Assembly (NCBI GenBank): GCA_963768165.1 | Contig: CAVYHJ010000002.1 | Span: 128,676 to 192,675, forward strand | Direction: 5' to 3' | DNA length: 64,000 nt | Source of the DNA: an uncultured bacterium | Lineage (GTDB): Bacteria; UBP4; UBA4092 | Shown here: positions 56 through 59,661 of the stretch, one piece after another | How positions within the stretch are numbered: the first letter of the stretch is position 1 | How the letters are laid out: every line of letters starts with the position of its first letter | The notes under the pieces: generated by a model | What the model saw: the letters and a program-made list of their open reading frames with translations, nothing else | What the model was told of the DNA's origin: nothing | Databases searched by the model: none | Translations under genes and position numbers: made by a program

Positions 56-194
56 TTTCTTAGTTGTAACGAGAGATTCTTTGTTCCTTCGCAGCTCAGG
101 ACAGGCTCTAAAGAGCAGGACTCAGAATGACAAAAATACGGGAATAAATCCCTACACTACATCCCATGTATCGGGGAATGACAAAAAAAAGGTA

Positions 195-7414: not shown

Positions 7415-9556
7415 TTAAAATTCTAAAGAATACTCTTGAGTTTCACTCCAGCCTTTGATTTGTATAAGTTCGACAAATTTTTCGACAATGAGCGGCTCAA
7501 ACTGCGTCCCCGCATTCTTTTTCAATTCATCTATAGCTTTCTGGAGAGGTAATTGTTTTCGGTAGGGACGGTTGGAGGTCATGGCATCAAAAGCATCTAC
7601 CACCGCAATAATGCGCGCGCCGAATGGAATATCATCTCCAGCCAAACCATCAGGATACCCGGTCCCGTCGAACCGTTCCTGATGATGATAGATTAACGGT
7701 AGGATATCTTTCATTGCTGGAATGGATTCCAATATCTGTTTACCAATGACCGGATGTCTTTTCATATTTTCATATTCTTCCGGTGAAAGAGCAATACCTT
7801 TTTGGAGTATTTCTTCTTTAATCCCAATTTTGCCGACATCATGTAAAAGACTGGCTCCCCGCAACGCTTCCAATTCATGCGGTGTCATCCCTAATTCTTT
7901 GCCCAGTGCCAACGCATATCCACTCAAACGGTCACAATGACCCCGGGTGTACGGATCCCGAGCTTCAATCGCGCTCGCAAATCCTTTCACGGTATTCAGA
8001 TACATATTGTTTAAACTCGAATAAAGGCGGGCATTTTCAATGGCGATCGCCGCATGCGTCGCAAAGGCTGATAGTAAATGCAAATCCGCAGAATCAAATG
8101 TTTTATCTCCGATTTTATTATTGGCATTCAAAACTCCGATTACTTTCTGCACCCCTCCTTCTCCTCCAATGATTAATGGCACGGAAAGCGCATCTTTAAC
8201 ATTCTCCGCTCGTTTAAACCCGACGAACCGGGTATCGGTAATCTTGTCTTTTAATAAAAGCGGTTGTTCATGTTTTGCTACCCATCCTGCAATTCCATCA
8301 CCCATTTTCCACCGTACAGATTCGACAATTTCTTTGCTTAATCCCACAGAAGCTTTGATTTTTAACGCTTGTTTGTCATCGTCCAATAACATCAAGGAAC
8401 CGGACTCCGCCTGGATTAATTCCAACGATTTTTGCATAATCAACTCCAGTACCTTGTCCAAATATAGATTCGCTGAAATGGCTTTTCCTATTTCAAACAG
8501 TGAACTTAATTCTGTCACCTTCCTCTGCGATTCACCAAAAAGCTGAATGTTTTCCAACCAGATCGCCGTTTGATTACAGATAACCGTCAGTAAACGCAAA
8601 TCCTCTTCGGTAAACGCATTCTTCTGTGAAAATGTGGCAACCTGGATAACCCCGATCACCTCTCCTTTGCTTATAAATGGAACACACATGGCAGATTGCA
8701 ATTGTACTGTAACGATACTTTGAGCGCCGGCAAATCGCTCATCCAATCCGGCATCCCGTATTAACACGGCTTTTTTGTCCCGTATTACTTGTTCCAATAT
8801 CGATTGACTAATGACAATTTTACGTTCCGGCAACTTGGACTTGGAGGGACTTTGTTGCTTTCGAACTGGAGGCGTATCCCGTAAGGCTTTTGTCTTTTTA
8901 TCGGTTAATCGCCTGGCGGCAACCGGCATCATGGCTCCGGTTTGCCGGTCACGTAAAAAAATAAACCCTTGTTCCACAGGAAAAATCTGAAATACTTCTT
9001 CCAAAAGTTTAACTAATAATTCTTTTTCATCTCGAATTTCACCCAGGAGAGAACTGATCTTATAAAAAGATTGCAGTTGGTTATGCGACCGGCGAAGAAT
9101 ATCAAACTCCTTTTCCTCCCCGGATGAGATCAAAGGAGTATCCCTGTTTTGCTGCGCTAATACTGTATCCGTTGGGTTCAGAGAAGCATCCACTACGGCC
9201 TCTACAAGCGACCAATCTTCCGGCAGTTGCCAATTCGTTCGGTAGAATAGCGGAATATTCTTTGATTCATCCACTGCCAGAAATTCCAGAGTAATTTTAC
9301 CAACTGTAATCTTCGACCCGTCATGTAATACGCTTCGAGAAACCAGTTTATGGTCTACGCGAGTCCCGTTGCGGCTCCCCAAATCTTGCAGAATAAAACT
9401 TTTTTCAACTTGTAGTATCGAACAATGGCGGCGGGAGGCCCGTTCATCATCCAACAATATGGCACATCCCGGGTCCCGTCCAATCAAGGTCTCTTTACCG
9501 GTTAGGGTATATGAATGAGTTTTTCCATCGTTCGTTTTCCAGACCAAATATGCCAT
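7415..9556 (-). CDS. FHA-GAF-GAF-HD-GYP c-di-GMP phosphodiesterase.
   Basis: An N-terminal FHA motif (LIGRDPGCAILLDD..SRRH), two GAF-like segments, and a C-terminal HD motif (HDVGKIGI) plus HHERFDGTGYPDGL (HD-GYP). Confidence 0.8.
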   Translation of the reverse strand: MAYLVWKTNDGKTHSYTLTGKETLIGRDPGCAILLDDERASRRHCSILQVEKSFILQDLGSRNGTRVDHKLVSRSVLHDGSKITVGKITLEFLAVDESKNIPLFYRTNWQLPEDWSLVEAVVDASLNPTDTVLAQQNRDTPLISSGEEKEFDILRRSHNQLQSFYKISSLLGEIRDEKELLVKLLEEVFQIFPVEQGFIFLRDRQTGAMMPVAARRLTDKKTKALRDTPPVRKQQSPSKSKLPERKIVISQSILEQVIRDKKAVLIRDAGLDERFAGAQSIVTVQLQSAMCVPFISKGEVIGVIQVATFSQKNAFTEEDLRLLTVICNQTAIWLENIQLFGESQRKVTELSSLFEIGKAISANLYLDKVLELIMQKSLELIQAESGSLMLLDDDKQALKIKASVGLSKEIVESVRWKMGDGIAGWVAKHEQPLLLKDKITDTRFVGFKRAENVKDALSVPLIIGGEGGVQKVIGVLNANNKIGDKTFDSADLHLLSAFATHAAIAIENARLYSSLNNMYLNTVKGFASAIEARDPYTRGHCDRLSGYALALGKELGMTPHELEALRGASLLHDVGKIGIKEEILQKGIALSPEEYENMKRHPVIGKQILESIPAMKDILPLIYHHQERFDGTGYPDGLAGDDIPFGARIIAVVDAFDAMTSNRPYRKQLPLQKAIDELKKNAGTQFEPLIVEKFVELIQIKGWSETQEYSLEF

Positions 9557-50496: not shown

Positions 50497-51444
50497 TTAT
50501 TTTTTTATAAATTGCCGATAAAGCTCATCAGAAACCGTATACGGGTCAAGCTCTTTCCGTTCTATTTTTCCAATGAACTGCTTCACGCTAGCGTTTTTGT
50601 AAAAGTTTCTCAATATATCATTAACGGCGGTATTTTTCAAGCATTCCAGTACTTCTGCCATGACCTGTTCCCGCCGTCGAACTTCCAATTCTTCCGATTG
50701 GGAAAGTTCTTCCAAAACGTCTTGGATGGATTGGTAAAGCTTCTCTATTCCATCCCCAGTTATTCCCGAAACGGAAATGATTTTAGGGATTTTCTCGTCC
50801 GCGGGTTTCAGGTGATATTTCATTTCCAATTCCCGAAACACTAAGGTTGATTCTGGTTTATCGGATTTATTCACTACCAGAATATCCCCAATATCTACAA
50901 TACCGGATTTGGCGAATTGGATAGAGTCCCCCGAACCCGGACCGAAAACGACTACAGTCATATCGGCGACATCTTGAATTTCGATTTCATCCTGACCCGT
51001 GCCGACCGTCTCGATTAAGAGAATGTCAAAACCGGAGATATCCAGAGCGTGGAGAATCGGTCGAATGGTAGAAGTTAATCCCCCACGATGAGCCCGGCTC
51101 GCCAGACTACGAATGAAGACCGCATCATCTGCCGCATGTCTCTGCATTCGGATTCGGTCACCCAACAATGCTCCACCGCTCACGGGACTGGTCGGGTCAA
51201 CAGCAGTGACAGCAACCCGTTTCCCGTCTTTGCGGAAATGCTCAATTAATTTATCTACAAGAGTAGATTTCCCGACACCGGGTGGACCGGTAATCCCAAT
51301 CTTTTTGGCGTTGCCGGTTTTGGAATAAAGCTTTTTTAGCTTCTCAAACCCTTGAGGATTCCCGTTTTCCAAAAGGCTGATGAGTTTCGGCAACTCCGAT
51401 GGAGATAATACAGGAATGGGATTTTTTTGTTTGGGCTTAGACAT
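50497..51444 (-). CDS. meaB: Methylmalonyl-CoA mutase-associated G-protein chaperone (MeaB/ArgK).
   Basis: P-loop GITGPPGVGKST and the MeaB-type switch regions. The likely start ATG at 51444 overlaps the upstream gene's stop as ATGTCTAA, which suggests translational coupling. The ORF track extends to 51492. Confidence 0.8.
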   Translation of the reverse strand: MSKPKQKNPIPVLSPSELPKLISLLENGNPQGFEKLKKLYSKTGNAKKIGITGPPGVGKSTLVDKLIEHFRKDGKRVAVTAVDPTSPVSGGALLGDRIRMQRHAADDAVFIRSLASRAHRGGLTSTIRPILHALDISGFDILLIETVGTGQDEIEIQDVADMTVVVFGPGSGDSIQFAKSGIVDIGDILVVNKSDKPESTLVFRELEMKYHLKPADEKIPKIISVSGITGDGIEKLYQSIQDVLEELSQSEELEVRRREQVMAEVLECLKNTAVNDILRNFYKNASVKQFIGKIERKELDPYTVSDELYRQFIKK

Positions 51445-51832
51445 TTTTCTTGACGAATTCAACAATCTCATTGAGCGAACTCCCGGGACCAAAGATTTCC
51501 TTAACGCCCAGTTTCTTCATCTCTTTGATATCTTCGGGCGGAACAATCCCTCCGGCAAAAATTAAAATATCCCGTGCCTTTTCTTTTTTTAATAAATCAA
51601 TCACGTTCTTAAACGCCGTGCGATGCGCTCCCGACAAGGACGATAAACCAATGGCATCCACGTCTTCCTGAATGGCAGTCCGCACCACCTGTTCGGCAGT
51701 GTTCCGAATCCCGGTATAAATAACTTCCATGCCCGCGTCACGCAAAGCTTGGGCAACGACCATGGCTCCGCGCTCGTGTCCATCAAGACCGGATTTGGCG
51801 ATTAAAACCTTTATCGGCTTGCTTGTTTTCAT
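51437..51832 (-). CDS. Methylmalonyl-CoA mutase B12-binding subunit (stand-alone C-terminal domain).
   Basis: DGHERGAMVVA cobalamin-binding (DxHxxG) motif in a 131-aa stand-alone protein. Confidence 0.85.
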   Translation of the reverse strand: MKTSKPIKVLIAKSGLDGHERGAMVVAQALRDAGMEVIYTGIRNTAEQVVRTAIQEDVDAIGLSSLSGAHRTAFKNVIDLLKKEKARDILIFAGGIVPPEDIKEMKKLGVKEIFGPGSSLNEIVEFVKKNV

Positions 51833-51945
51833 CCAACAGATTATAGCATTGAGTGAGAAGATGTTAAATCAGTTAAATAGGTTATATAGGGCGTTGGTGA
51901 TATTATTTATTGGGGGAAATCAGGTGAAAGCTTATATTTTCTTTA

Positions 51946-52929
51946 TTAAGCAGGGAATCTTTGTATCCATGGAACATCTTTTGAGAACACACCTGGATTC
52001 CAACCGACTGCAGGTAACAAATCACCCAACGCTGATGCCAATTGTTCAAGTTTATGTTGTATAGCATTGTCATAGTGTGCTATTTCTTCACTTTCAGAAT
52101 TCAAAACACCAAATACAATACCTCTACCTTTAATGGGAACAACAATTTCCGATTTAGTCTCGATTATGGCTTGAAAATAATTTGATCTTTCATGGACATT
52201 ATTGGCATTTACTGTTTTCCCAGAAGAATACGCCAAACCTAATAAGCCTGCAAATGTGGCTATACGATATCTTTGTTTATGACGGGGAATCATATCTGCC
52301 ACAGCTACAAGTTGACTAGAATATGCAGATGTAATTATCAAAAATATCTGATTGTAGTCTGTTTCTGTAGTACGTACCAATTCATGTAAAGCAATCTCTA
52401 GAAGTTCAACCAAGTCACCCGAATTCTTTAAAAGATTAATATAAGAATTTTGTAATGTGTCAGGAGGATTTACTTGAGAAAGATATCTACCAATTGATGT
52501 TGCAATCTTAAATGCTAAATCTTCAGGGAATGTAAATTTATCATACATTAAATTCTTTCCTATTCGTGATTTAAAGGATTGCAATTTAGATTTACCCGGT
52601 TCATTTTCAATCATTTTGGGTGGCCAAGGATATTCATCATTAACAATAAAACAAAAGATGGGTTTTTGTAATTTCTTTGCATAATTATATTCCTGTTCAG
52701 TGATTGATAATTGTGTATCAGGTAATATATATCCATATCTATATGCATATATACCAACAAACAAATCACAGGATTCAATCTCTTTAAAACAAACCTGTAT
52801 TGGTTCCACCGGACGCGCACCTAATACCTCCATTCTGCCAAGATGATATCCTAGACGTTCTAAAGCCTCTGCTGCAGCTTTTCGATATTCTTTCAAGTCA
52901 ATATATGTAGAACTTAGAAATACATTCAT
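51946..52929 (-). CDS. DUF4062 (TIR/flavodoxin-like) N-terminal domain fused to a C-terminal GAF-like domain. It is the first gene of an AT-rich island.
   Basis: VFLSSTYIDLKEYR...SCDLFVGIYAYRYGYI matches the DUF4062 core. The C-terminal part has a GAF-like pattern (VFGVLNSESEE). About 33% GC. Confidence 0.5.
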   Translation of the reverse strand: MNVFLSSTYIDLKEYRKAAAEALERLGYHLGRMEVLGARPVEPIQVCFKEIESCDLFVGIYAYRYGYILPDTQLSITEQEYNYAKKLQKPIFCFIVNDEYPWPPKMIENEPGKSKLQSFKSRIGKNLMYDKFTFPEDLAFKIATSIGRYLSQVNPPDTLQNSYINLLKNSGDLVELLEIALHELVRTTETDYNQIFLIITSAYSSQLVAVADMIPRHKQRYRIATFAGLLGLAYSSGKTVNANNVHERSNYFQAIIETKSEIVVPIKGRGIVFGVLNSESEEIAHYDNAIQHKLEQLASALGDLLPAVGWNPGVFSKDVPWIQRFPA

Positions 52930-53027
52930 ATATTATTCATTTTTTGAGGTTGAAGTTCTACTGAAACGGAGCCAAGAAATGAAGTTTGAAATGAAATCTA
53001 TGTTATTCAATCTTTGACAGAACATAA

Positions 53028-53510
53028 TTAGATTAACTTATATGGAAAGAGTGTCTTATTCTCTTTATCCTGAAACACCTTATCACTATATAAGCCAAAT
53101 ACTTGTACTAATTGTTGTTGGCTAAATATAGCGGCTTTATTTAGACCCCATGTACCACCTCGACCTTTACTAAGATATTTGAAATCAAAATAACTAATTT
53201 TATAAATATCTTTAATCTCATTAGTTTCCCACATCATAGGAAGCCATGTGCCCTGCCATGGGTCAAGACCAACGATATGGAGTACTCTATAAATATCCTC
53301 ATCTTTTTTAGGAAAATTGTATGTAATATGCAATCTTCCATTATTACAATTCCTGCATAAATGCACCAATTTATCTTGGTTCCATCCATTTACATAAATA
53401 TCATCCCATAAAAAATAATAGATACTTATATGATTACATACTTCTTTAAAATTATTTATTCGATTATGTCCATAATCACATGTATCACATTCCCACCAAT
53501 AGCCAGCCAT
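53028..53510 (-). CDS. Hypothetical Cys-rich (putative zinc-ribbon) protein in the AT-rich island.
   Basis: CDTCDYGH and CRNCNNGRLH CxxC pairs. No recognised family. Confidence 0.4.
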   Translation of the reverse strand: MAGYWWECDTCDYGHNRINNFKEVCNHISIYYFLWDDIYVNGWNQDKLVHLCRNCNNGRLHITYNFPKKDEDIYRVLHIVGLDPWQGTWLPMMWETNEIKDIYKISYFDFKYLSKGRGGTWGLNKAAIFSQQQLVQVFGLYSDKVFQDKENKTLFPYKLI

Positions 53511-53582
53511 GTATTAACACCTTATTCTGTTGAGTGATGCGTTGCGAAATATAACCTGCCTCATTCTTGACATTGAAAAATA

Positions 53583-54404
53583 TTAGGTTACCTCTTGTGA
53601 TATTAACCTTAGAATAGAACCAGTTATATATAAATAGAATTCAACCAATCTTGGTTCAGGATTAGTCGGTATTTCTTGTTTCTTTTTTCCGTGTCGTGAG
53701 GAATATTCATGAGCAATTTTGCAATAGTGATGTAATATTTGACCCCAATGGCTATCAAGATTCAATTTTTGAATCAATTGATAGATTAATTTCTCGTCAT
53801 CAAGTGATTTGTTGGTTTGCAATATTGCTTTAACTATCCCTTCTAAAGCACTATATAAATTTGTAATTGCATCAGAATAATTATTTCTCAAATAAAAATT
53901 TAAAGCATTGGAGTATTTTTCTCTGCTATCTGGAAATTTGTCCAGCCATGCTAAATTTTCAATTATCAAAACGTCATCAAGTTCTGTAGCCCCTGACTTA
54001 ATAATATTTTTACCATCAAATCTAAAACCTATATTCAATACCATAGAATCGAATACATTTTTTATTTCAGATGAAAAATATTTGAACGCTGATGAAGAAC
54101 CTTGTTCCTGTTCAGATATATATGAATGAGAAATACTTAAAATCGCATGTAAAAGTATCATATTTTTTTCTATAGATCTATCGATATCTTGATAGTTGTT
54201 AATTAAATTTGTAAAGAACTCACCTGTTTTTGAACTCGGTAAGCCTAGTGTGAAAACCACTTGTTTATATAATCGTGAATAATTATGCATCCAATAGGTA
54301 TTGTCATGGTCTAATATGATTCTCAATCTATTCTTGAATCTTTCATATTCTTCTTCTAAATCCGTTTCAATTCCTAGATTTTTATAAATATTTTTTAAAC
54401 TCAT
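53583..54404 (-). CDS. Hypothetical 273-aa protein in the AT-rich island.
   Basis: ORF only. It has the same orientation and low GC as its neighbours. Confidence 0.4.
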   Translation of the reverse strand: MSLKNIYKNLGIETDLEEEYERFKNRLRIILDHDNTYWMHNYSRLYKQVVFTLGLPSSKTGEFFTNLINNYQDIDRSIEKNMILLHAILSISHSYISEQEQGSSSAFKYFSSEIKNVFDSMVLNIGFRFDGKNIIKSGATELDDVLIIENLAWLDKFPDSREKYSNALNFYLRNNYSDAITNLYSALEGIVKAILQTNKSLDDEKLIYQLIQKLNLDSHWGQILHHYCKIAHEYSSRHGKKKQEIPTNPEPRLVEFYLYITGSILRLISQEVT

Positions 54405-54556
54405 AATATTTCATTTATTCCCTTGTGTTAGAAACAAAGTAAATTTCTTAACGCTCTATTATACTGGATTCCAATTTGCATGGGAATGACAAAAGAGAAC
54501 TAACAAGGTCGGAAACAATTCAGATTAGAAATTGGATGGCAGATTAAAAAATGCTG

Positions 54557-54584
54557 TTGACAAAAAGGAAATTGGATGTATAAT
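54557..54584 (+). promoter_or_regulatory. Near-consensus sigma70 promoter (TTGACA, 16-bp spacer, TATAAT) in the island-edge noncoding region. No plus-strand ORF lies downstream of it.
   Basis: Read directly. It is followed by the 16-bp palindrome ATCATTTTAAAATGAT (54595-54610). Confidence 0.45.
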
Positions 54585-54630
54585 TTAAAGACAAATCATT
54601 TTAAAATGATGATAGTTGCATAAAAACAGT

Positions 54631-54663
54631 CATCGGGAAAGAGAAATGTGTTCATTCCCGATG
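54631..54663. repeat. Hairpin family B variant (CATCGGGAA-N15-TTCCCGATG).
   Basis: Same stem core, CGGGAA/TTCCCG, as the other three copies. Confidence 0.5.
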
Positions 54664-54839
54664 TGATTGGATGTTAAATTTAGTATAAGATGAAATTAGT
54701 TTGGGTGTGGAAATAGTTTAAAAGTGATTAAAAAGGGTAGTTTTGAGGGGTTTTTGTAAAAAAGCTACCTGCTCTCCTCGATAAGGACATTCGAGGACAA
54801 GTTTACAGTTTCAATCTAATCAATCCTCTATAAGGCAGG

Positions 54840-54865
54840 GATGAAGGAGATCGATCTCCTTCATC
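54840..54865. repeat. Perfect 26-bp palindrome GATGAAGGAGATCGATCTCCTTCATC.
   Basis: Exact reverse-complement symmetry. Confidence 0.9.
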
Positions 54866-54910
54866 CCAACTCCGCTTCATCTCCGTTTCTCCTCCGTTTC
54901 AAGTACGCTT

Positions 54911-54965
54911 CAGGTTCGTTTAAAAACCAGTTTAAGGTTTAAAGTTTAATGTTTACGGTTAACAG
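54911..54965. repeat. Iteron-like array of about 6 tandem GTTTAA(N) heptamers.
   Basis: GGTTCGTTTAAAAACCAGTTTAAGGTTTAAAGTTTAATGTTTACGGTTAAC shows a 7-bp periodicity. Confidence 0.6.
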
Positions 54966-55064
54966 AGGGGAGATAAGGGAAAGGATATTGGGAGAGGGCC
55001 GAAACAGAGAGACATTTTGGAGGGTTTGATGAATCAAACCCCTACAATTGGGTAGAAGAGAAGA

Positions 55065-56597
55065 TTAGAGAATGGTTGGGGGATGGTATTCGCCAAAAAG
55101 GGAGCGGAGGAGGGTGCAGATTTCACCCAAAGTGACTTTGTTTTTGACGGATTCTATAAGGATGGGCATTAAAGTGTCCGCAGTGCGGACACTTTTTTCC
55201 AATTTATCGAGACTTTGGTTGACTTTTTTCATATCCCGATTTTTTTTGAATTTAAGAACGCGTAGGCGTTGTTCTTTTTCGATTTTGAGATTTAATTTAA
55301 AGAGGGGAGGGTTGGAATCTTTTTGGGATTGGAAGGCATTGAGTCCCACAATGATTTGTTTTTTTGATTCGACCGCTTTTTGGTAATCATAGGCAGACTT
55401 GAATATTTCTTTTTGGACGTACCCGGATTCAATGGCTTTCAACATTCCACCCATTTGGTCAACCTTGGCAATATATTCGTTGGCTTCCCGTTCCAAGGTA
55501 TCGGTCAATTCTTCCACATAAAACGAACCTCCCAAAGGGTCGGGTTCATGGGTAACGCCTGATTCATAAGCGATGACTTGTTGAGTGCGAAGAGCAAGGA
55601 GAACGGAATTTTCCGTGGGCAGACCGAGGGCCTCATCTTTTGAGTTTGTATGCAGAGATTGACACCCGCCGAGAACCGCCGCGAGAGCTTGTAGGGTTGT
55701 ACGGACGACGTTGTTATCGGGTTGTTGCGCCGTGAGCGTGGAACCGGCAGTTTGGACATGAAAGCGCAAGAGTTGAGCGCGTTTCTCTTTGACCTTAAAA
55801 CGATGTTTGAGAATCTTCGCCCACATCCGGCGAGCGGCACGGAATTTGGCGACCTCTTCCAAGAAATTATTGTGGCAATTGAAAAAGAAAGCTATACGTT
55901 GCGCAGCGTGTTCGATGTTGACGCCGGCTTTTTTGGCAGCAGTGAGATAGGCGATGCCGTCCGAAAGCGTGAAAGCGAGTTCCTGCGCCGCGGTCGCACC
56001 CATTTCGCGCATGTGATACCCGCCGACACTGATAGTATTCCATTTGGGAACGTGCTGAACGCAAAATCCAACGAGGTCGGTAATCAGGCGGAGCGAAGGT
56101 TCGGGCGGGAAGATATAGGTGCCGCGCGCGATGTATTCTTTGAGAATATCGTTTTGAGTGGTGCCGGAAACTTTGTCCCAAGAGACTTTTTGTTGGTCAG
56201 CAACAGCGAGATAAAATGCCAACAAAATAGACGCGGTAGAGTTGATGGTCATGGAGGTAGAAACTTTATCAAGAGGGATGCCATGGAACAAGGTTTCCAT
56301 ATCTTCGATGGTGGAAATCGCGACCCCAACCCGACCGACTTCCCCTTTTGCCATGGGGTGGTCGGAGTCGTACCCGATTTGGGTCGGGAGGTCAAAGGCG
56401 ACGGAGAGCCCGGTTTGTCCCTGCTTGAGGAGATATTTGTAGCGAGTGTTGGATTCTTTGGCGTCACCGAACCCGGCGTATTGGCGCATAGTCCAGAGTT
56501 GTTTTTTGTACATCTCCGGATAGATACCGCGGGTGAAGGGGAATTCGCCGGGAGAGCCAATGTTCCAGTTGTGGTTTCGTTTTTTCATATATGCCAT
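55065..56597 (-). CDS. Methylmalonyl-CoA mutase catalytic (large, N-terminal TIM-barrel) subunit.
   Basis: The [24 protein letters not shown] and other MCM substrate-binding-barrel motifs. It is separated from its B12-binding partner by the AT-rich island. Confidence 0.9.
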
Positions 56598-56602
56598 AAT
56601 TT

Positions 56603-56697
56603 TGTCATTACGAGCGCAGCGAAGTAATCTCGTTTTTATTTTCTATTGACGCTTTAGAATGAGATTGCTTCGTCGCTACGCTCCTCGCAATGACAAA
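56603..56697. mobile_element. MITE-like element family F, copy 1 (about 95 bp). Termini TGTCATTACGAGCGCAGCGAAG...CTTCGTCGCTACGCTCCTCGCAATGACAAA form an imperfect inverted repeat.
   Basis: It fills the whole gap between the MCM start and the GIY-YIG stop. Homologous copies lie at 56999-57093 and 57592-57705. Confidence 0.55.
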
Positions 56698-56988
56698 TCA
56701 TAATATTTCTGCAAACAAATCCTGCCATTCAGGGTTTATGCTATTTACTAAATCAATCTTCTTCTGTCTTGAACCCGCCTTAATCTGTTTTTCGCGTTCG
56801 ATAGCCTGATCAATATAATCGTATTCTTCATAATAGACTAATTTATTCACATTATATTTTTTGGTAAATACACTTCCATGCTTTTCTTTATGTGAATCAA
56901 CCCTGCAATCCAGATTATTAGTTACACCCGTGTAAAGAACCGTATTGCGTTTGTTAGTCATAATATAAATATAGTAATTTCTACTCAT
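56698..56988 (-). CDS. Small GIY-YIG nuclease family protein.
   Basis: YYIYIMTN...LYTGVT...R...H N-terminal GIY-YIG motif in a 96-aa stand-alone protein. It is flanked on both sides by family F elements. Confidence 0.8.
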   Translation of the reverse strand: MSRNYYIYIMTNKRNTVLYTGVTNNLDCRVDSHKEKHGSVFTKKYNVNKLVYYEEYDYIDQAIEREKQIKAGSRQKKIDLVNSINPEWQDLFAEIL

Positions 56989-56998
56989 AGCAACTGTT

Positions 56999-57093
56999 TG
57001 TCATTACGAGCGCAGCGAAGTAATCTCGCATTTATCATCCATCATCACTTTAGAACGAGATTGCTTCATCGCTGCGCTCCTCGCAATGACAAA
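56999..57093. mobile_element. MITE-like element family F, copy 2.
   Basis: TGTCATTACGAGCGCAGCGAAGTAATCTCG...CGAGATTGCTTCATCGCTGCGCTCCTCGCAATGACAAA. A short terminal fragment CGCAATGACAAAA also occurs at 57137-57150. Confidence 0.55.
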
Positions 57094-57167
57094 TAAAAAG
57101 ATTACCATCCTCTACATGACAAGTAAAGGCTATACCCGCAATGACAAAATAAAAGAAATTTTGTTCC

Positions 57168-57572
57168 CTATTTTGATTCCTGACTCAACTCAATCAATAC
57201 CCCGTGGGTGGATTTTGGATGAAGGAAGGTGACGATGGTTCCTTCGGCGCCAGGAACAGGGGTGTCGCTGGTCAATTGGATTTTGTTTTCTTTTAAATCA
57301 GCGATGTGTTTTTCGATATCGGTGACTTCCAGTGAAATGTGATGAATCCCTTCACCATGTTTTTCGATAAATTTAGCAATGGGAGAATCGGGAGAGGTGG
57401 GTTCCAATAATTCGATACGAGAATTACCGACGGGAATCATCGCCACGCGGACTTTTTGGGACGGGACTTCCTCAATGACGATTTCTTCCAAACCCAATCC
57501 GTCAGTGTAAATGGGAAGAGCGTCGTGGAGACTTTTCACGGCGATACCGATATGGTCAATGGCTTGGATCAT
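57168..57572 (-). CDS. Methylmalonyl-CoA epimerase (glyoxalase/VOC family).
   Basis: IDHIGIAV...GLG......... EPTSP...HHISLEV is typical of methylmalonyl-CoA epimerase. The ATG at 57572 is preferred over the TTG at 57581 given in the track. Confidence 0.8.
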   Translation of the reverse strand: MIQAIDHIGIAVKSLHDALPIYTDGLGLEEIVIEEVPSQKVRVAMIPVGNSRIELLEPTSPDSPIAKFIEKHGEGIHHISLEVTDIEKHIADLKENKIQLTSDTPVPGAEGTIVTFLHPKSTHGVLIELSQESK

Positions 57573-57591
57573 AAAAATCAAAACCTAACAC

Positions 57592-57705
57592 TGTCATTCT
57601 AGGTCCATCGCAGACTCAGGATAAACTCCACGAAGAATCTCTGCCCAAAGTCATTTTATATCAGGTAGAACACAGGGATTCTTCGCTGCGCTCAGAATGA
57701 CAAAA
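57592..57705. mobile_element. MITE-like element family F, copy 3 (a more diverged variant with termini TGTCATTCT...AGAATGACAAAA and a CTTCGCTGCGCTC core).
   Basis: It shares the terminal TGTCATT/AATGACA repeats and the GCGCAGCGAAG core with copies 1 and 2. Confidence 0.5.
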
Positions 57706-57716
57706 ACAAAGCATCT

Positions 57717-58901
57717 TTATATTACCCCTTTTTTTCGCAATTCATCAATGTCCTTTTTAGAATAACCCAAATCCTGCAAAACTTCATCCGTGTGTTGGCC
57801 GAGAGTGGGAGGGGCGGAGTCAATGGAACCGGGGGTGTCGGATAGTTTGACAGGGATGCCGGTGACTTTGACGTTCATACCTTTGGCGTGAGGGAGTTCT
57901 TTGACCATGTCCCGCGCTTGAATTTGGGGATGGTTGAGTATCTCATCCACATTTAAAATGGGGCCTGCAGGGATTCCATTTTTATCGAACAATGCCAACC
58001 ATTCATCCGCAGTTTTTTGTTTGAGAATTGGCTGAAGGATATTAAAGAGTTCATCGTGATTTTCGACACGTTTGGGATTGGTAGCGAATTTGGGATGATT
58101 TACTATATCTTTCAAATCAAGTAAATTACAAAATTGAATCCAGAGTTTATCGTTACCGCAGGCGATGTTGATGTAGCGATCTTGGGTAGCGAAAGTTTCA
58201 TAGGGGCAAATGGTGGGGTGTTGATTGCCCTTGCGGGTGGGAGATTTCCCTGTGAGAAAATATATTCCGGCTTGGTACGTGAGCAGAGAAACCTGCCCAT
58301 CGAGCAGAGAGATATCCACTTTCTGCCCTTTACCCATGCGATGGCGCGCGATGAGAGCTAATAAAATTCCCTGCGTGGCGTAAATTCCTGCAAGGATATC
58401 GGCAATCGAGGTGCCCAATTTGAAGGGCGGGCCGTTGGGGTCGCCGGTCAAATTCATAAGTCCGCTCATACCTTGTACAGCGAGGTCATAACCGGGACTA
58501 TCCGCCATTGGGCCGGTGTGACCATAGCCTGTGATGGAACAGTAGATGAGTTTAGGATTTAATTTATGAACGGTCTCATAATCAAAGCCAATGGATTGGA
58601 GATAATCGCGGCGGAAATTTTCCAAGAGGACATCGGATTTGGCGATTAATTTACGAATAATTTCTTTCCCCTCCGGAGTTTTTAGATTGACAGTCAGGGA
58701 TTTTTTATTGCGATTGACGGACAGGAAATAGGCGGATTCGCCATCCACAAAAGGCGGACCGTAGGTGCGGGTATCATCGCCTTTGACAGGGACTTCAATC
58801 TTAATCACTTCCGCGCCCATATCGGCTAGAATCATGGAACAATAGGGTCCCGCGAGGATACGGGACAAATCCAAAATTTTTATATTATCCAAAGGGCGCA
58901 T
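57717..58901 (-). CDS. Family III CoA-transferase (CaiB/BaiF family).
   Basis: N-terminal ILDLSRILAGPYCSMILADMGAEVIKIE signature and the conserved Asp region. Confidence 0.85.
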   Translation of the reverse strand: MRPLDNIKILDLSRILAGPYCSMILADMGAEVIKIEVPVKGDDTRTYGPPFVDGESAYFLSVNRNKKSLTVNLKTPEGKEIIRKLIAKSDVLLENFRRDYLQSIGFDYETVHKLNPKLIYCSITGYGHTGPMADSPGYDLAVQGMSGLMNLTGDPNGPPFKLGTSIADILAGIYATQGILLALIARHRMGKGQKVDISLLDGQVSLLTYQAGIYFLTGKSPTRKGNQHPTICPYETFATQDRYINIACGNDKLWIQFCNLLDLKDIVNHPKFATNPKRVENHDELFNILQPILKQKTADEWLALFDKNGIPAGPILNVDEILNHPQIQARDMVKELPHAKGMNVKVTGIPVKLSDTPGSIDSAPPTLGQHTDEVLQDLGYSKKDIDELRKKGVI

Positions 58902-58980: not shown

Positions 58981-59661
58981 TTATTTCCCGGAATTTCCAT
59001 GGACAATTACTGTAAATTCCCCTTTGACGGCGCGTTCCGGCAGATGAGAGATAATTTCCTGAACGGGGGCGCGGAGAATTTCCTCAAATTTTTTAGTCAA
59101 TTCGCGCGCAAGGGTCATGGTACGATTTCCCAATACTTCTGCTATATCTTCGAGGAGCGCTTGGATACGGTAAGGCGATTCATAAAAGACAAGAGTACAT
59201 TCCAATTCTTTCAAAGTTTCCAAGACTTTTTTTCGAGCTACGGTTTTTCGCGGAAGAAAACCAATAAATAGAAAGGAATCCGTTGGTAATCCGGAAACGG
59301 AAAGGGCGGTAATCATGGCGGTGACTCCCGGGATGGGAACGACCGGAATTTTTTCTTGGATAGCGCATTGAATCAAGTGATACCCCGGATCGGAGATACC
59401 GGGCGTACCAGCGTCCGAAACCAGGGCGATATTTTTACCGGAGAGTAACTGATGCACCAATTGCGGGGCTTTGAGATGTTTATTATGGTCGTGATAACTG
59501 GTTAAGGGTTTATGGATATCAAAATGGTTTAAGAGATGGAGGGAATGGCGGGTATCTTCGGCGGCGATTAAATCCACTTCTTTAAGAATTCGCAAGGCGC
59601 GCAGCGTAATATCTTCGAGATTTCCGATGGGTGTTGAAATGACATAGAGGGTTCCCGGCAT
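58981..59661 (-). CDS. rsmI: 16S rRNA (cytidine1402-2'-O)-methyltransferase.
   Basis: YVISTPIGNLEDITLRAL...AAEDTR motifs of the RsmI tetrapyrrole-methylase-like family. Confidence 0.85.
   Translation of the reverse strand: MPGTLYVISTPIGNLEDITLRALRILKEVDLIAAEDTRHSLHLLNHFDIHKPLTSYHDHNKHLKAPQLVHQLLSGKNIALVSDAGTPGISDPGYHLIQCAIQEKIPVVPIPGVTAMITALSVSGLPTDSFLFIGFLPRKTVARKKVLETLKELECTLVFYESPYRIQALLEDIAEVLGNRTMTLARELTKKFEEILRAPVQEIISHLPERAVKGEFTVIVHGNSGK

Follow-up and report, generated by a model that had tools for sequence, protein, structure and literature searches.

In Neisseria, the NTS repeat (CGTCATTCCCGCGMAVGCGGGAATCYRG) is the binding and cleavage target of SsnA, a GIY-YIG nuclease of 94 aa that consists of a single domain and is assigned to CDD cd10448 (GIY-YIG_unchar_3) (Chenal et al., Nat Commun 2025; PMC11893778). 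SsnA cuts single-stranded DNA (ssDNA) only, on one strand only and a few nt upstream of the repeat; double-stranded DNA (dsDNA) and RNA are not substrates. Cleavage is governed by the three nt before the palindrome and binding by the C after it, and changes or extensions of the loop are tolerated. Repeats of this type, termed SRM, were found near 71% of the homologues and on both sides in 42%, a layout that the authors compare to an insertion sequence (IS), and SsnA together with NTS modulates natural transformation in N. meningitidis (PMC11893778). A second closely related group is the superfamily of CGTC/TGTC-tagged REP hairpins, mostly inverted dimers, which takes in Neisseria dRS3 and Rickettsia RPE-4/6; the CGTC-tagged repeats "apparently lack a dedicated transposase" and mobilisation by other transposases was proposed (Di Nocera, De Gregorio, Rocco, BMC Genomics 2013; PMC3733652). 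Here we describe an ssn-type gene and its hairpin repeats in a 64,000-nt stretch of DNA (the window; contig CAVYHJ010000002.1, assembly GCA_963768165.1) from an uncultured bacterium of the UBP4 lineage. On sequence comparison, the locus is very likely an Ssn-family nuclease gene with its cognate SRM hairpin repeats, inserted into a formerly compact CoA-transferase/epimerase/mutase operon. We placed it under Ssn/SRM because of the protein homology, the retained invariant residues, and the tag, A-T-initiated stem and tail C of the repeats. The basic Ssn/SRM pairing was published in 2025; what the locus adds is a further member whose distinct repeat class escapes the published motif. The anatomy of the locus, the association of gene and repeats across phyla, the covariation of the stem and the insertion relative to the orthologous operon were observed directly.

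The ssn-type gene and its flanking repeats

Four genes of the window are read in one direction from the minus strand: CoA-transferase III (family III; 57717-58901), methylmalonyl-CoA epimerase (glyoxalase fold; 57168-57581), the ssn-type open reading frame (ORF; 56698-56988) and the methylmalonyl-CoA mutase large subunit (55065-56597). The ssn-type ORF is intact and is the single copy of its type in the window. Its product is a 96-aa single-domain GIY-YIG nuclease (PF01541, E 2e-17), in which the domain spans residues 4-77 and no second domain was found. For this protein Pfam gave the generic PF01541 only and NCBIfam no specific model; the nearest solved structures are the UPF0213 proteins 1zg2 and 1ywl. 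Every invariant column in an alignment of 31 family members is kept. The protein is 40% identical over 90 aa, ungapped (E 4e-24), to a 94-aa ORF of Neisseria gonorrhoeae that is bracketed by NTS repeats (CGTCATTCCCGC...GCGGGAATC) and that, from its length and NTS flanks, is presumably the SsnA orthologue. The PADLOC defence library gave no match, and one unannotated family was matched in the PHROGs phage library.

An earlier reading of this DNA, made from the letters and the predicted ORFs (the sequence-only reading), had placed palindromic elements in the gaps of the operon. We found three such palindromes of 95-111 nt (E1, E2 and E3) together with a solo arm, and E1 and E2 bracket the intact GIY-YIG gene as that reading had described. 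Each palindrome is made of one oriented module present twice in inverted arrangement; in order, the module has an unpaired (T/C)GTC tag, the 5-nt stem half ATTGC, a variable interior, GCAAT and then C. The E1 doublet (56603-56697, minus) lies between the stop of the ssn-type gene and the start of the mutase gene, with a 33-nt spacer between its two inverted arms. Its long arm GTCATTGCGAGGAGCGTAGCGACGAAGCAATC (56663-56694, minus) carries the GTC tag, the ATTGC/GCAAT stem and the C tail, and its short arm GTCATTACGAGCGCAGCGAAGTAATC (56604-56629, plus) carries the compensated stem ATTAC/GTAAT, a double change that keeps the pairing within the arm and weakens the pairing between arms. The E2 doublet (56999-57093, minus) ends 10 nt upstream of the ssn ATG; it has the long arm GTCATTGCGAGGAGCGCAGCGATGAAGCAATC (57059-57090, minus) and a short arm (57000-57025, plus) of the same sequence as that of E1. 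In both doublets the long arm has the layout GTCATTGCGAG-GAGCGNAGCGAY-GAAGCAATC and is paired with the short arm GTCATTACGAGCGCAGCGAAGTAATC.

The inverted repeats proved to be conserved between copies on alignment. E1 and E2 are imperfect palindromes of 95 nt and are 86% identical; the E3 doublet (57592-57702) shares with them the termini and the GAGCGCAGCGAAG core and has diverged in the rest. This core, common to all three, has five matches in 64 kb versus 0.36 expected. E3 is inverted in orientation relative to E1 and E2 and belongs to a different stem class, with a long arm of ATTCT/AGAAT type (57593-57639, plus) and the short arm GTCATTCTGAGCGCAGCGAAGAATC (57677-57701, minus). What the sequence-only reading had listed as a terminal fragment at 57137-57150 is indeed repeat sequence, not a mere fragment: it is the end of a complete solo arm (57100-57145, minus), GTCATTGCGGG...GGTAATC, with the stem ATTGC/GTAAT containing one G-T wobble. 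This solo arm is related to the D2/D3 repeat families. We also noted that at 57568-57597 (minus) the outer end of E3, ATGACA, is followed by an 18-nt spacer and TATGAT, a sigma-70-like arrangement (10 of 12 positions) that reads into the epimerase gene and may be due to chance.

Within 720 nt of the ssn-type ORF there are seven arms, in all of which a 5-bp stem is preceded by a TGTC tag and followed by a tail C, and TGTC is the tag in all arms of the window. The arm interior measures 12-36 nt in the window and up to ~50 nt elsewhere, often with a small internal hairpin. Many long arms contain GCGNAGC, which we take to match the very stable d(GCGAAGC) mini-hairpin, as a lead only.

A generic arm pattern gave 12 matches in the window versus 3.2 +/- 1.6 in shuffled sequences, so about three of the 12 would be due to chance; a match at 59643 was discarded as coding sequence of a methyltransferase N-terminus. 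Two solo arms lie farther away. One, GTCATTCCCATGCAAATTGGAATC(CAG), is NTS-like with the stem ATTCC/GGAAT and is found at 54467-54490 (minus), about 2 kb from the nuclease gene and ~60 nt upstream of the next gene; the other, of the E3 class (ATTCT/AGAAT), is found at 75-131 (minus), 56 kb from the ssn-type gene. A second, imperfect GTCATTCCCC... arm near 135-183 adjoins the latter, and both are downstream of a gene ending at 195. The scan excess and the distant solo arms together mean that the repeats cluster round the ssn-type gene yet are not confined to the operon. The proliferation specific to one operon that had been proposed is thus not supported, and clustering near the nuclease gene is the norm for the family.

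The locus shares with the published Ssn/SRM systems (PMC11893778) a single-domain GIY-YIG protein of ~95 aa, oriented hairpin repeats on both sides of its gene, a (C/T)GTC tag that precedes the stem on its 5' side and a C that follows immediately, stems that begin with AT, tolerance of a variable loop, and a clustering of repeats round the gene with others scattered. It differs in that the window arms form mostly inverted pairs, giving 95-nt palindromes, and in its range: the window repeat class is found in Cyanobacteria, Chloroflexota, Bacteroidota, candidate phyla and viral contigs and, unlike published SRM, is not mainly proteobacterial.

Gene-repeat association, stem covariation and insertion

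The family of the 96-aa nuclease is large (at least 8000 matches); the best matches are 65-75% identical and come from Cyanobacteria, Chloroflexota and Clostridia. We examined the surroundings of homologues at 80 genome loci (57-71% identical proteins, from ~15 phylum-level groups as labelled on the records). Termini of the element were found within 300 nt of the ORF at 70 of these loci, so that the pairing with GIY-YIG genes recurs elsewhere. The terminus density was 3.95 per kb within 400 nt of the ORF versus 0.17 per kb in the remaining flanks, a 23-fold difference, and with the generic arm definition 76/80 loci were positive. ATTGC was the stem in 248 of about 300 arms. The commonest layout, seen at 19 loci, is a left arm, 10-25 nt, the ORF from ATG to stop, and a right arm, which the stop codon sometimes abuts; 10 loci have the pair-ORF-pair layout of the window. 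Given the arm-ORF-arm layout, the 95-nt palindromes look like that unit without the ORF, and the part of the sequence-only reading that had combined a nuclease gene with repeats of non-autonomous form stands in this respect. At four loci, arrays of arm pairs with a spacing of ~150-200 nt extend ~0.4-1.3 kb on each side of the ssn gene. Five loci contain direct tandem runs of single termini or arms with a period of 28-30 nt (~23 nt in a Planktothrix plasmid), which suggests repeated local duplication or nested insertion.

Arms of this type were also found in viral contigs, at no fewer than 120 loci, either single or as inverted pairs. Among 115 distinct viral-contig arms the conserved block is 32-33 nt long with sharp edges on both sides, and the position preceding GTC is occupied by T in 66 arms, by C in 41, by G in seven and by A in one. 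The E1 long arm has exactly the sequence of the 32-nt block that is conserved among viral-contig arms (more than 115). The exact short-arm variant of E1 and E2 occurs in 13 metagenome contigs with unrelated flanks and contexts, and the arms are also present in phage 5' leaders.

The same layout of arms and ORF, each with its own stem sequence, was seen in one viral contig and in plasmids or chromosomes of Planktothrix, Sinorhizobium meliloti and Novosphingobium aromaticivorans. The homologue on the Planktothrix plasmid is flanked by E3-class arms (ATTCT/AGAAT), that of S. meliloti by inverted tagged hairpins CGTC-ATCCTCGGG...CCCGAGGAT-CCA, and that of N. aromaticivorans by inverted tagged hairpins CGTC-GCCCCG.... 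The stem sequence shifts in parallel with protein divergence, in the five classes compared (window, Planktothrix, S. meliloti, N. aromaticivorans and Neisseria). In the Planktothrix agardhii plasmid p1 the ssn homologue has an MmeI-type restriction-modification gene on one side and the DISARM helicase gene drmA on the other, a defence-island context.

We followed the stem through the collected arms by freeing one stem position at a time. Changes in the two stem halves proved strongly coupled, with a marked excess of compensatory double changes. At stem pair 4, 17 of 20 double changes are still Watson-Crick pairs (Fisher p 1e-21, a value inflated because repeat copies share descent and are not independent samples), and in the viral loci the same holds for 41/44 double changes. 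Inside the window, ATTAC/GTAAT and ATTCT/AGAAT take the place of ATTGC/GCAAT. From class to class the entire stem is exchanged while the tag and the tail C stay constant, which points the same way as the covariation. In DNA folding, the complete doublets are more stable than shuffled sequences (z -3.4 for E1 and -5.4 for E2).

The gaps in the operon of the window measure 135 and 570 nt. Among the relatives found that keep this gene order, L227 is the closest (mutase 72% identical); its epimerase and mutase genes share a 4-nt overlap. In three others (L224-226; 68% identical, CoA-transferase/epimerase/mutase order kept) the gaps are 76 and 84 nt. Mobility of the elements is plausible because the genes overlap in this closest same-order relative. 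The nearest mutase homologue (P0122, L203) was rejected as an empty site since its gene order differs; L227 and L224-226 are usable but distant. The comparison with orthologous operons that the sequence-only reading had called for yielded a closest same-order relative without the insertions, not an exact empty site or a target-site duplication.

A polymorphism was found among related phage contigs (~44 kb), of which one in eight is without the arm-containing insert. In this contig (L217), 5 nt separate a promoter-like TATACT box from the ribosome-binding site; in the other seven the place is taken by a mosaic insert of ~135-165 nt that ends in a canonical arm and exists in two versions. Taken together, the operon gaps, the phage polymorphism and the short-arm variant in unrelated contigs indicate insertion or turnover, as far as sequence comparison can tell.

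At one homologue locus (L177) the arm-ORF-arm unit is flanked by two copies (2247-2358 and 2806-2917; 99% identical) of a 116-nt stretch that takes in the pheT 5' end. At another (L136) the flanks of the ssn unit carry a duplication, at 90% identity, of the last 79 nt of the gene upstream. We did not accept these long flank duplications as target-site duplications: they concern two loci only, both in metagenome assemblies, and are possible artefacts. They could be traces of repair-mediated insertion or assembly artefacts.

The operon departs from its orthologues at a second place. The B12-binding small subunit (51437-51832) and MeaB (50497-51492) are parted from the mutase large subunit by a block within 51437-55064, which contains a 660-nt ORF-free stretch and three ORFs, two of them of 273 and 160 aa and the third for a DUF4062-GAF protein of 327 aa. 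Mutase and B12 subunit are direct neighbours, in this order, in the orthologous operons of L224 and L227, and the solo arm at 54467-54490 sits at the edge of the block. The block looks like a second insertion into the operon. In L224 (a metagenome-assembled genome of Verrucomicrobiae), the gap between mutase and B12 subunit holds an inverted arm pair (7510-7615) with the stems GTC-ATGCT...AGCAT-C and GTC-ACCC...GGGT-C. Other repetition in the window is unrelated to ssn and the arms: tandem repeats in coding sequence at 21.2-22.1 kb (period 123-138 nt) and at 62.7-63.9 kb (period 168-192 nt), and two sets of three diverged paralogous segments (25-28 kb and 30-36.5 kb).

Proposed mechanism and alternative explanations

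By homology with SsnA, the 96-aa protein would bind an arm only in ssDNA, as during replication, transformation or conjugation, and would nick the bound strand a few nt 5' of the GTC tag. Because the recognisable arms of an inverted pair sit on opposite strands, the predicted nicks would bracket the inverted pair or the arm-ORF-arm unit, a geometry that an IS-like or REPIN/RAYT-like element would need. We infer that the protein may cut the window arms and that arm cutting may lead to arm copying or movement; the RNA hairpins added to the operon transcript would then be a side effect. A more far-reaching proposal, which we put forward only tentatively, is that arm-ORF-arm could be an autonomous ssDNA transposon with the 96-aa GIY-YIG nuclease as its sole protein, and that the ATTGC-class arms are its non-autonomous progeny spreading horizontally (~15 phylum-level groups and phages).

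Several results weigh against the Ssn/SRM assignment or against mobility, in addition to the shared descent of the repeat copies mentioned above. The published SRM search motif, HGTCWYN(0-2)YYVSBRHN(0-5)WNVSBRGN(0-2)RNCYNB (PMC11893778), which is a heuristic from 29 genomes and not a definition, has no match in the window on either strand. It misses the window arms because their stem is shorter and their interior long (a 5-bp stem and a long interior versus a 7-8-bp stem and a short loop in the Neisseria NTS), and the absence of matches makes the window arms a distinct SRM class. Single arms folded as DNA with nearest-neighbour parameters are no better than shuffled sequences (z about 0), so the 5-bp stem of the single arm rests on covariation and not on energy. 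No direct target-site duplication was found round E1, E2 or E3, where the TTT...AAA flanks are inverted, not direct, and for this repeat class we came upon no filled site with a clean empty counterpart that would give the exact junctions. Among the arm-bearing viral loci, at least 120 in number, none has an ssn gene, and most arms are therefore far from any nuclease gene. We know of no demonstration of transposition by any Ssn protein.

Among the alternatives, a domesticated host system, as opposed to a selfish mobile unit, fares best, although we regard it as doubtful. Here the nuclease would trim incoming or exposed ssDNA at arms placed round certain genes. Recombination or horizontal transfer would be modulated in this way, a role that has been proposed for Neisseria, and the arms would be kept for it. 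The effect of SsnA and NTS on natural transformation in N. meningitidis (PMC11893778), the single ssn copy in 64 kb and the arms that bracket genes in the manner of NTS repeats are all in keeping with such a role. However, near-identical arms and 57-71% identical proteins in ~15 phylum-level groups, as well as arms in viral contigs, fit horizontal spread better than a long history of vertical domestication, and the insertion splits a metabolic operon without obvious need of protection. A domesticated role agrees with all that we observed, and it and the insertion of an Ssn/SRM unit do not exclude each other.

It is unlikely that the arms were spread by another enzyme (of the IS200/IS605 type or a RAYT transposase) or by replication slippage while Ssn only recognises them, for example as a regulator or restriction factor. 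GIY-YIG enzymes cleave by hydrolysis and are not known to catalyse strand transfer, a point in favour of this explanation, as is the remoteness of most arms from any ssn gene. Other transposases have also been proposed for the CGTC-tagged repeats, for which no dedicated one was found (PMC3733652). The tight arm-ORF-arm nesting, in which the stop sometimes abuts the right arm, is nevertheless hard to explain without co-mobility; the stem sequences of the five classes differ in parallel with protein divergence; and no transposase gene was found among the genes neighbouring the focal ssn locus.

The sequence-only reading had favoured a homing-type GIY-YIG nuclease accompanied by MITE-like (miniature inverted-repeat transposable element) repeats. 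In such a model the endonuclease would cleave both strands of unoccupied sites, repair would copy its gene into them, and classical MITEs would hitch-hike. We consider this highly improbable. GIY-YIG is a known homing-endonuclease fold, and the window protein has in common with I-TevI and Seg its catalytic fold and some flavour of a selfish element; it weakly resembles TIGR01453, the model for group I intron endonucleases (16 bits, far below the cut-off of 56; E 0.0075), and the flank duplications at L177 and L136 could stem from repair-mediated copying. Homing endonucleases of this type, however, have ~250 aa and a separate DNA-binding domain and cut dsDNA, whereas the window protein is a bare 96-aa catalytic domain whose homologue SsnA is inactive on dsDNA (PMC11893778). 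As for the repeats, the inverted termini are real and are shared with classical MITEs; the direct target-site duplications and the DDE-type IS transposase parent of a MITE are both absent, and the putative parent encodes a nuclease.

The remaining alternative, also raised by the sequence-only reading, is that the palindromes are a structured RNA family (an intercistronic stabiliser or attenuator) among which the nuclease gene landed. It draws on the RNA hairpins of E1 and E2, which reach -35 to -42 kcal/mol inside a co-directional operon (z -5.1 to -8.1 versus shuffles; -3.0 to -4.3 for E3) and which could influence the processing of the operon mRNA as a by-product. We give it very little weight. 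Either strand folds as well as the other, E3 has the opposite orientation to E1 and E2, and long-type arms occur in either orientation to neighbouring genes (a crude test based on simple ORF calling); the same arms are found in unrelated contexts including phage 5' leaders; and SsnA binds no RNA (PMC11893778). When the window and 14 of the loci were compared with Rfam, at the gathering threshold as well as relaxed ones, the elements matched nothing beyond microRNA-like hairpins with sub-threshold scores, the true matches elsewhere in the loci (6S RNA and Flavo-1) being unrelated to them, and a promoter/terminator scan of the element region found no enrichment.

Relation to described repeat families and significance

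Beyond the Ssn/SRM systems, the window arms resemble the CGTC-tagged REP superfamily in their unpaired CGTC/TGTC (or CCTC) tag, the A-T start of the stem and the short unpaired tail, and in both groups inverted dimers predominate and the repeats are mostly intergenic. N. aromaticivorans and S. meliloti, which are named in the CGTC section of that work (PMC3733652), carry homologous GIY-YIG genes flanked by tagged hairpins. The four described CGTC families have a stem of 8-9 bp and a loop of 4-5 nt, compared with 5 bp and an interior of 12-36 nt in the window arms, and the short stem and long interior place the window arms outside these four families. No enzyme was reported for the CGTC-tagged REP repeats, whereas an Ssn-type gene is associated with the window arms.

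REPIN/RAYT systems likewise consist of short oriented hairpins that occur singly, in inverted doublets and in clusters, with a single-copy enzyme gene flanked by them and a presumed recognition of ssDNA. The E2 and E1 doublets flank the ssn-type ORF as repeat doublets flank the RAYT gene. The RAYT enzyme is an HUH/Y1 transposase and the tag is GTAG; in the window the enzyme is a GIY-YIG nuclease and the tag GTC. REPIN-RAYT pairs are lineage-specific and vertically inherited, in contrast to the Ssn-type arms and proteins, which are common across phyla. Searching the literature for the arm sequence as text returned primers only, and for GIY-YIG together with MITE, YhbQ, UPF0213 or transposase nothing relevant was found.

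For genome annotation, the arms account for many small ORFs that are spurious and for long palindromes between genes. A 32-nt arm that hardly varies is common to very distant bacteria and to viral contigs, and through the ssn locus and its relatives the "orphan" CGTC-tagged REP repeats (Di Nocera et al., 2013; PMC3733652) can be connected with the Ssn family. If the arm-ORF-arm unit were indeed a transposon, its protein would be the first prokaryotic GIY-YIG "transposase" and would supply the "missing enzyme" of the CGTC-tagged REP superfamily. The locus and its relatives provide concrete material on the role of Ssn nucleases outside Neisseria and on the movement of their repeats.

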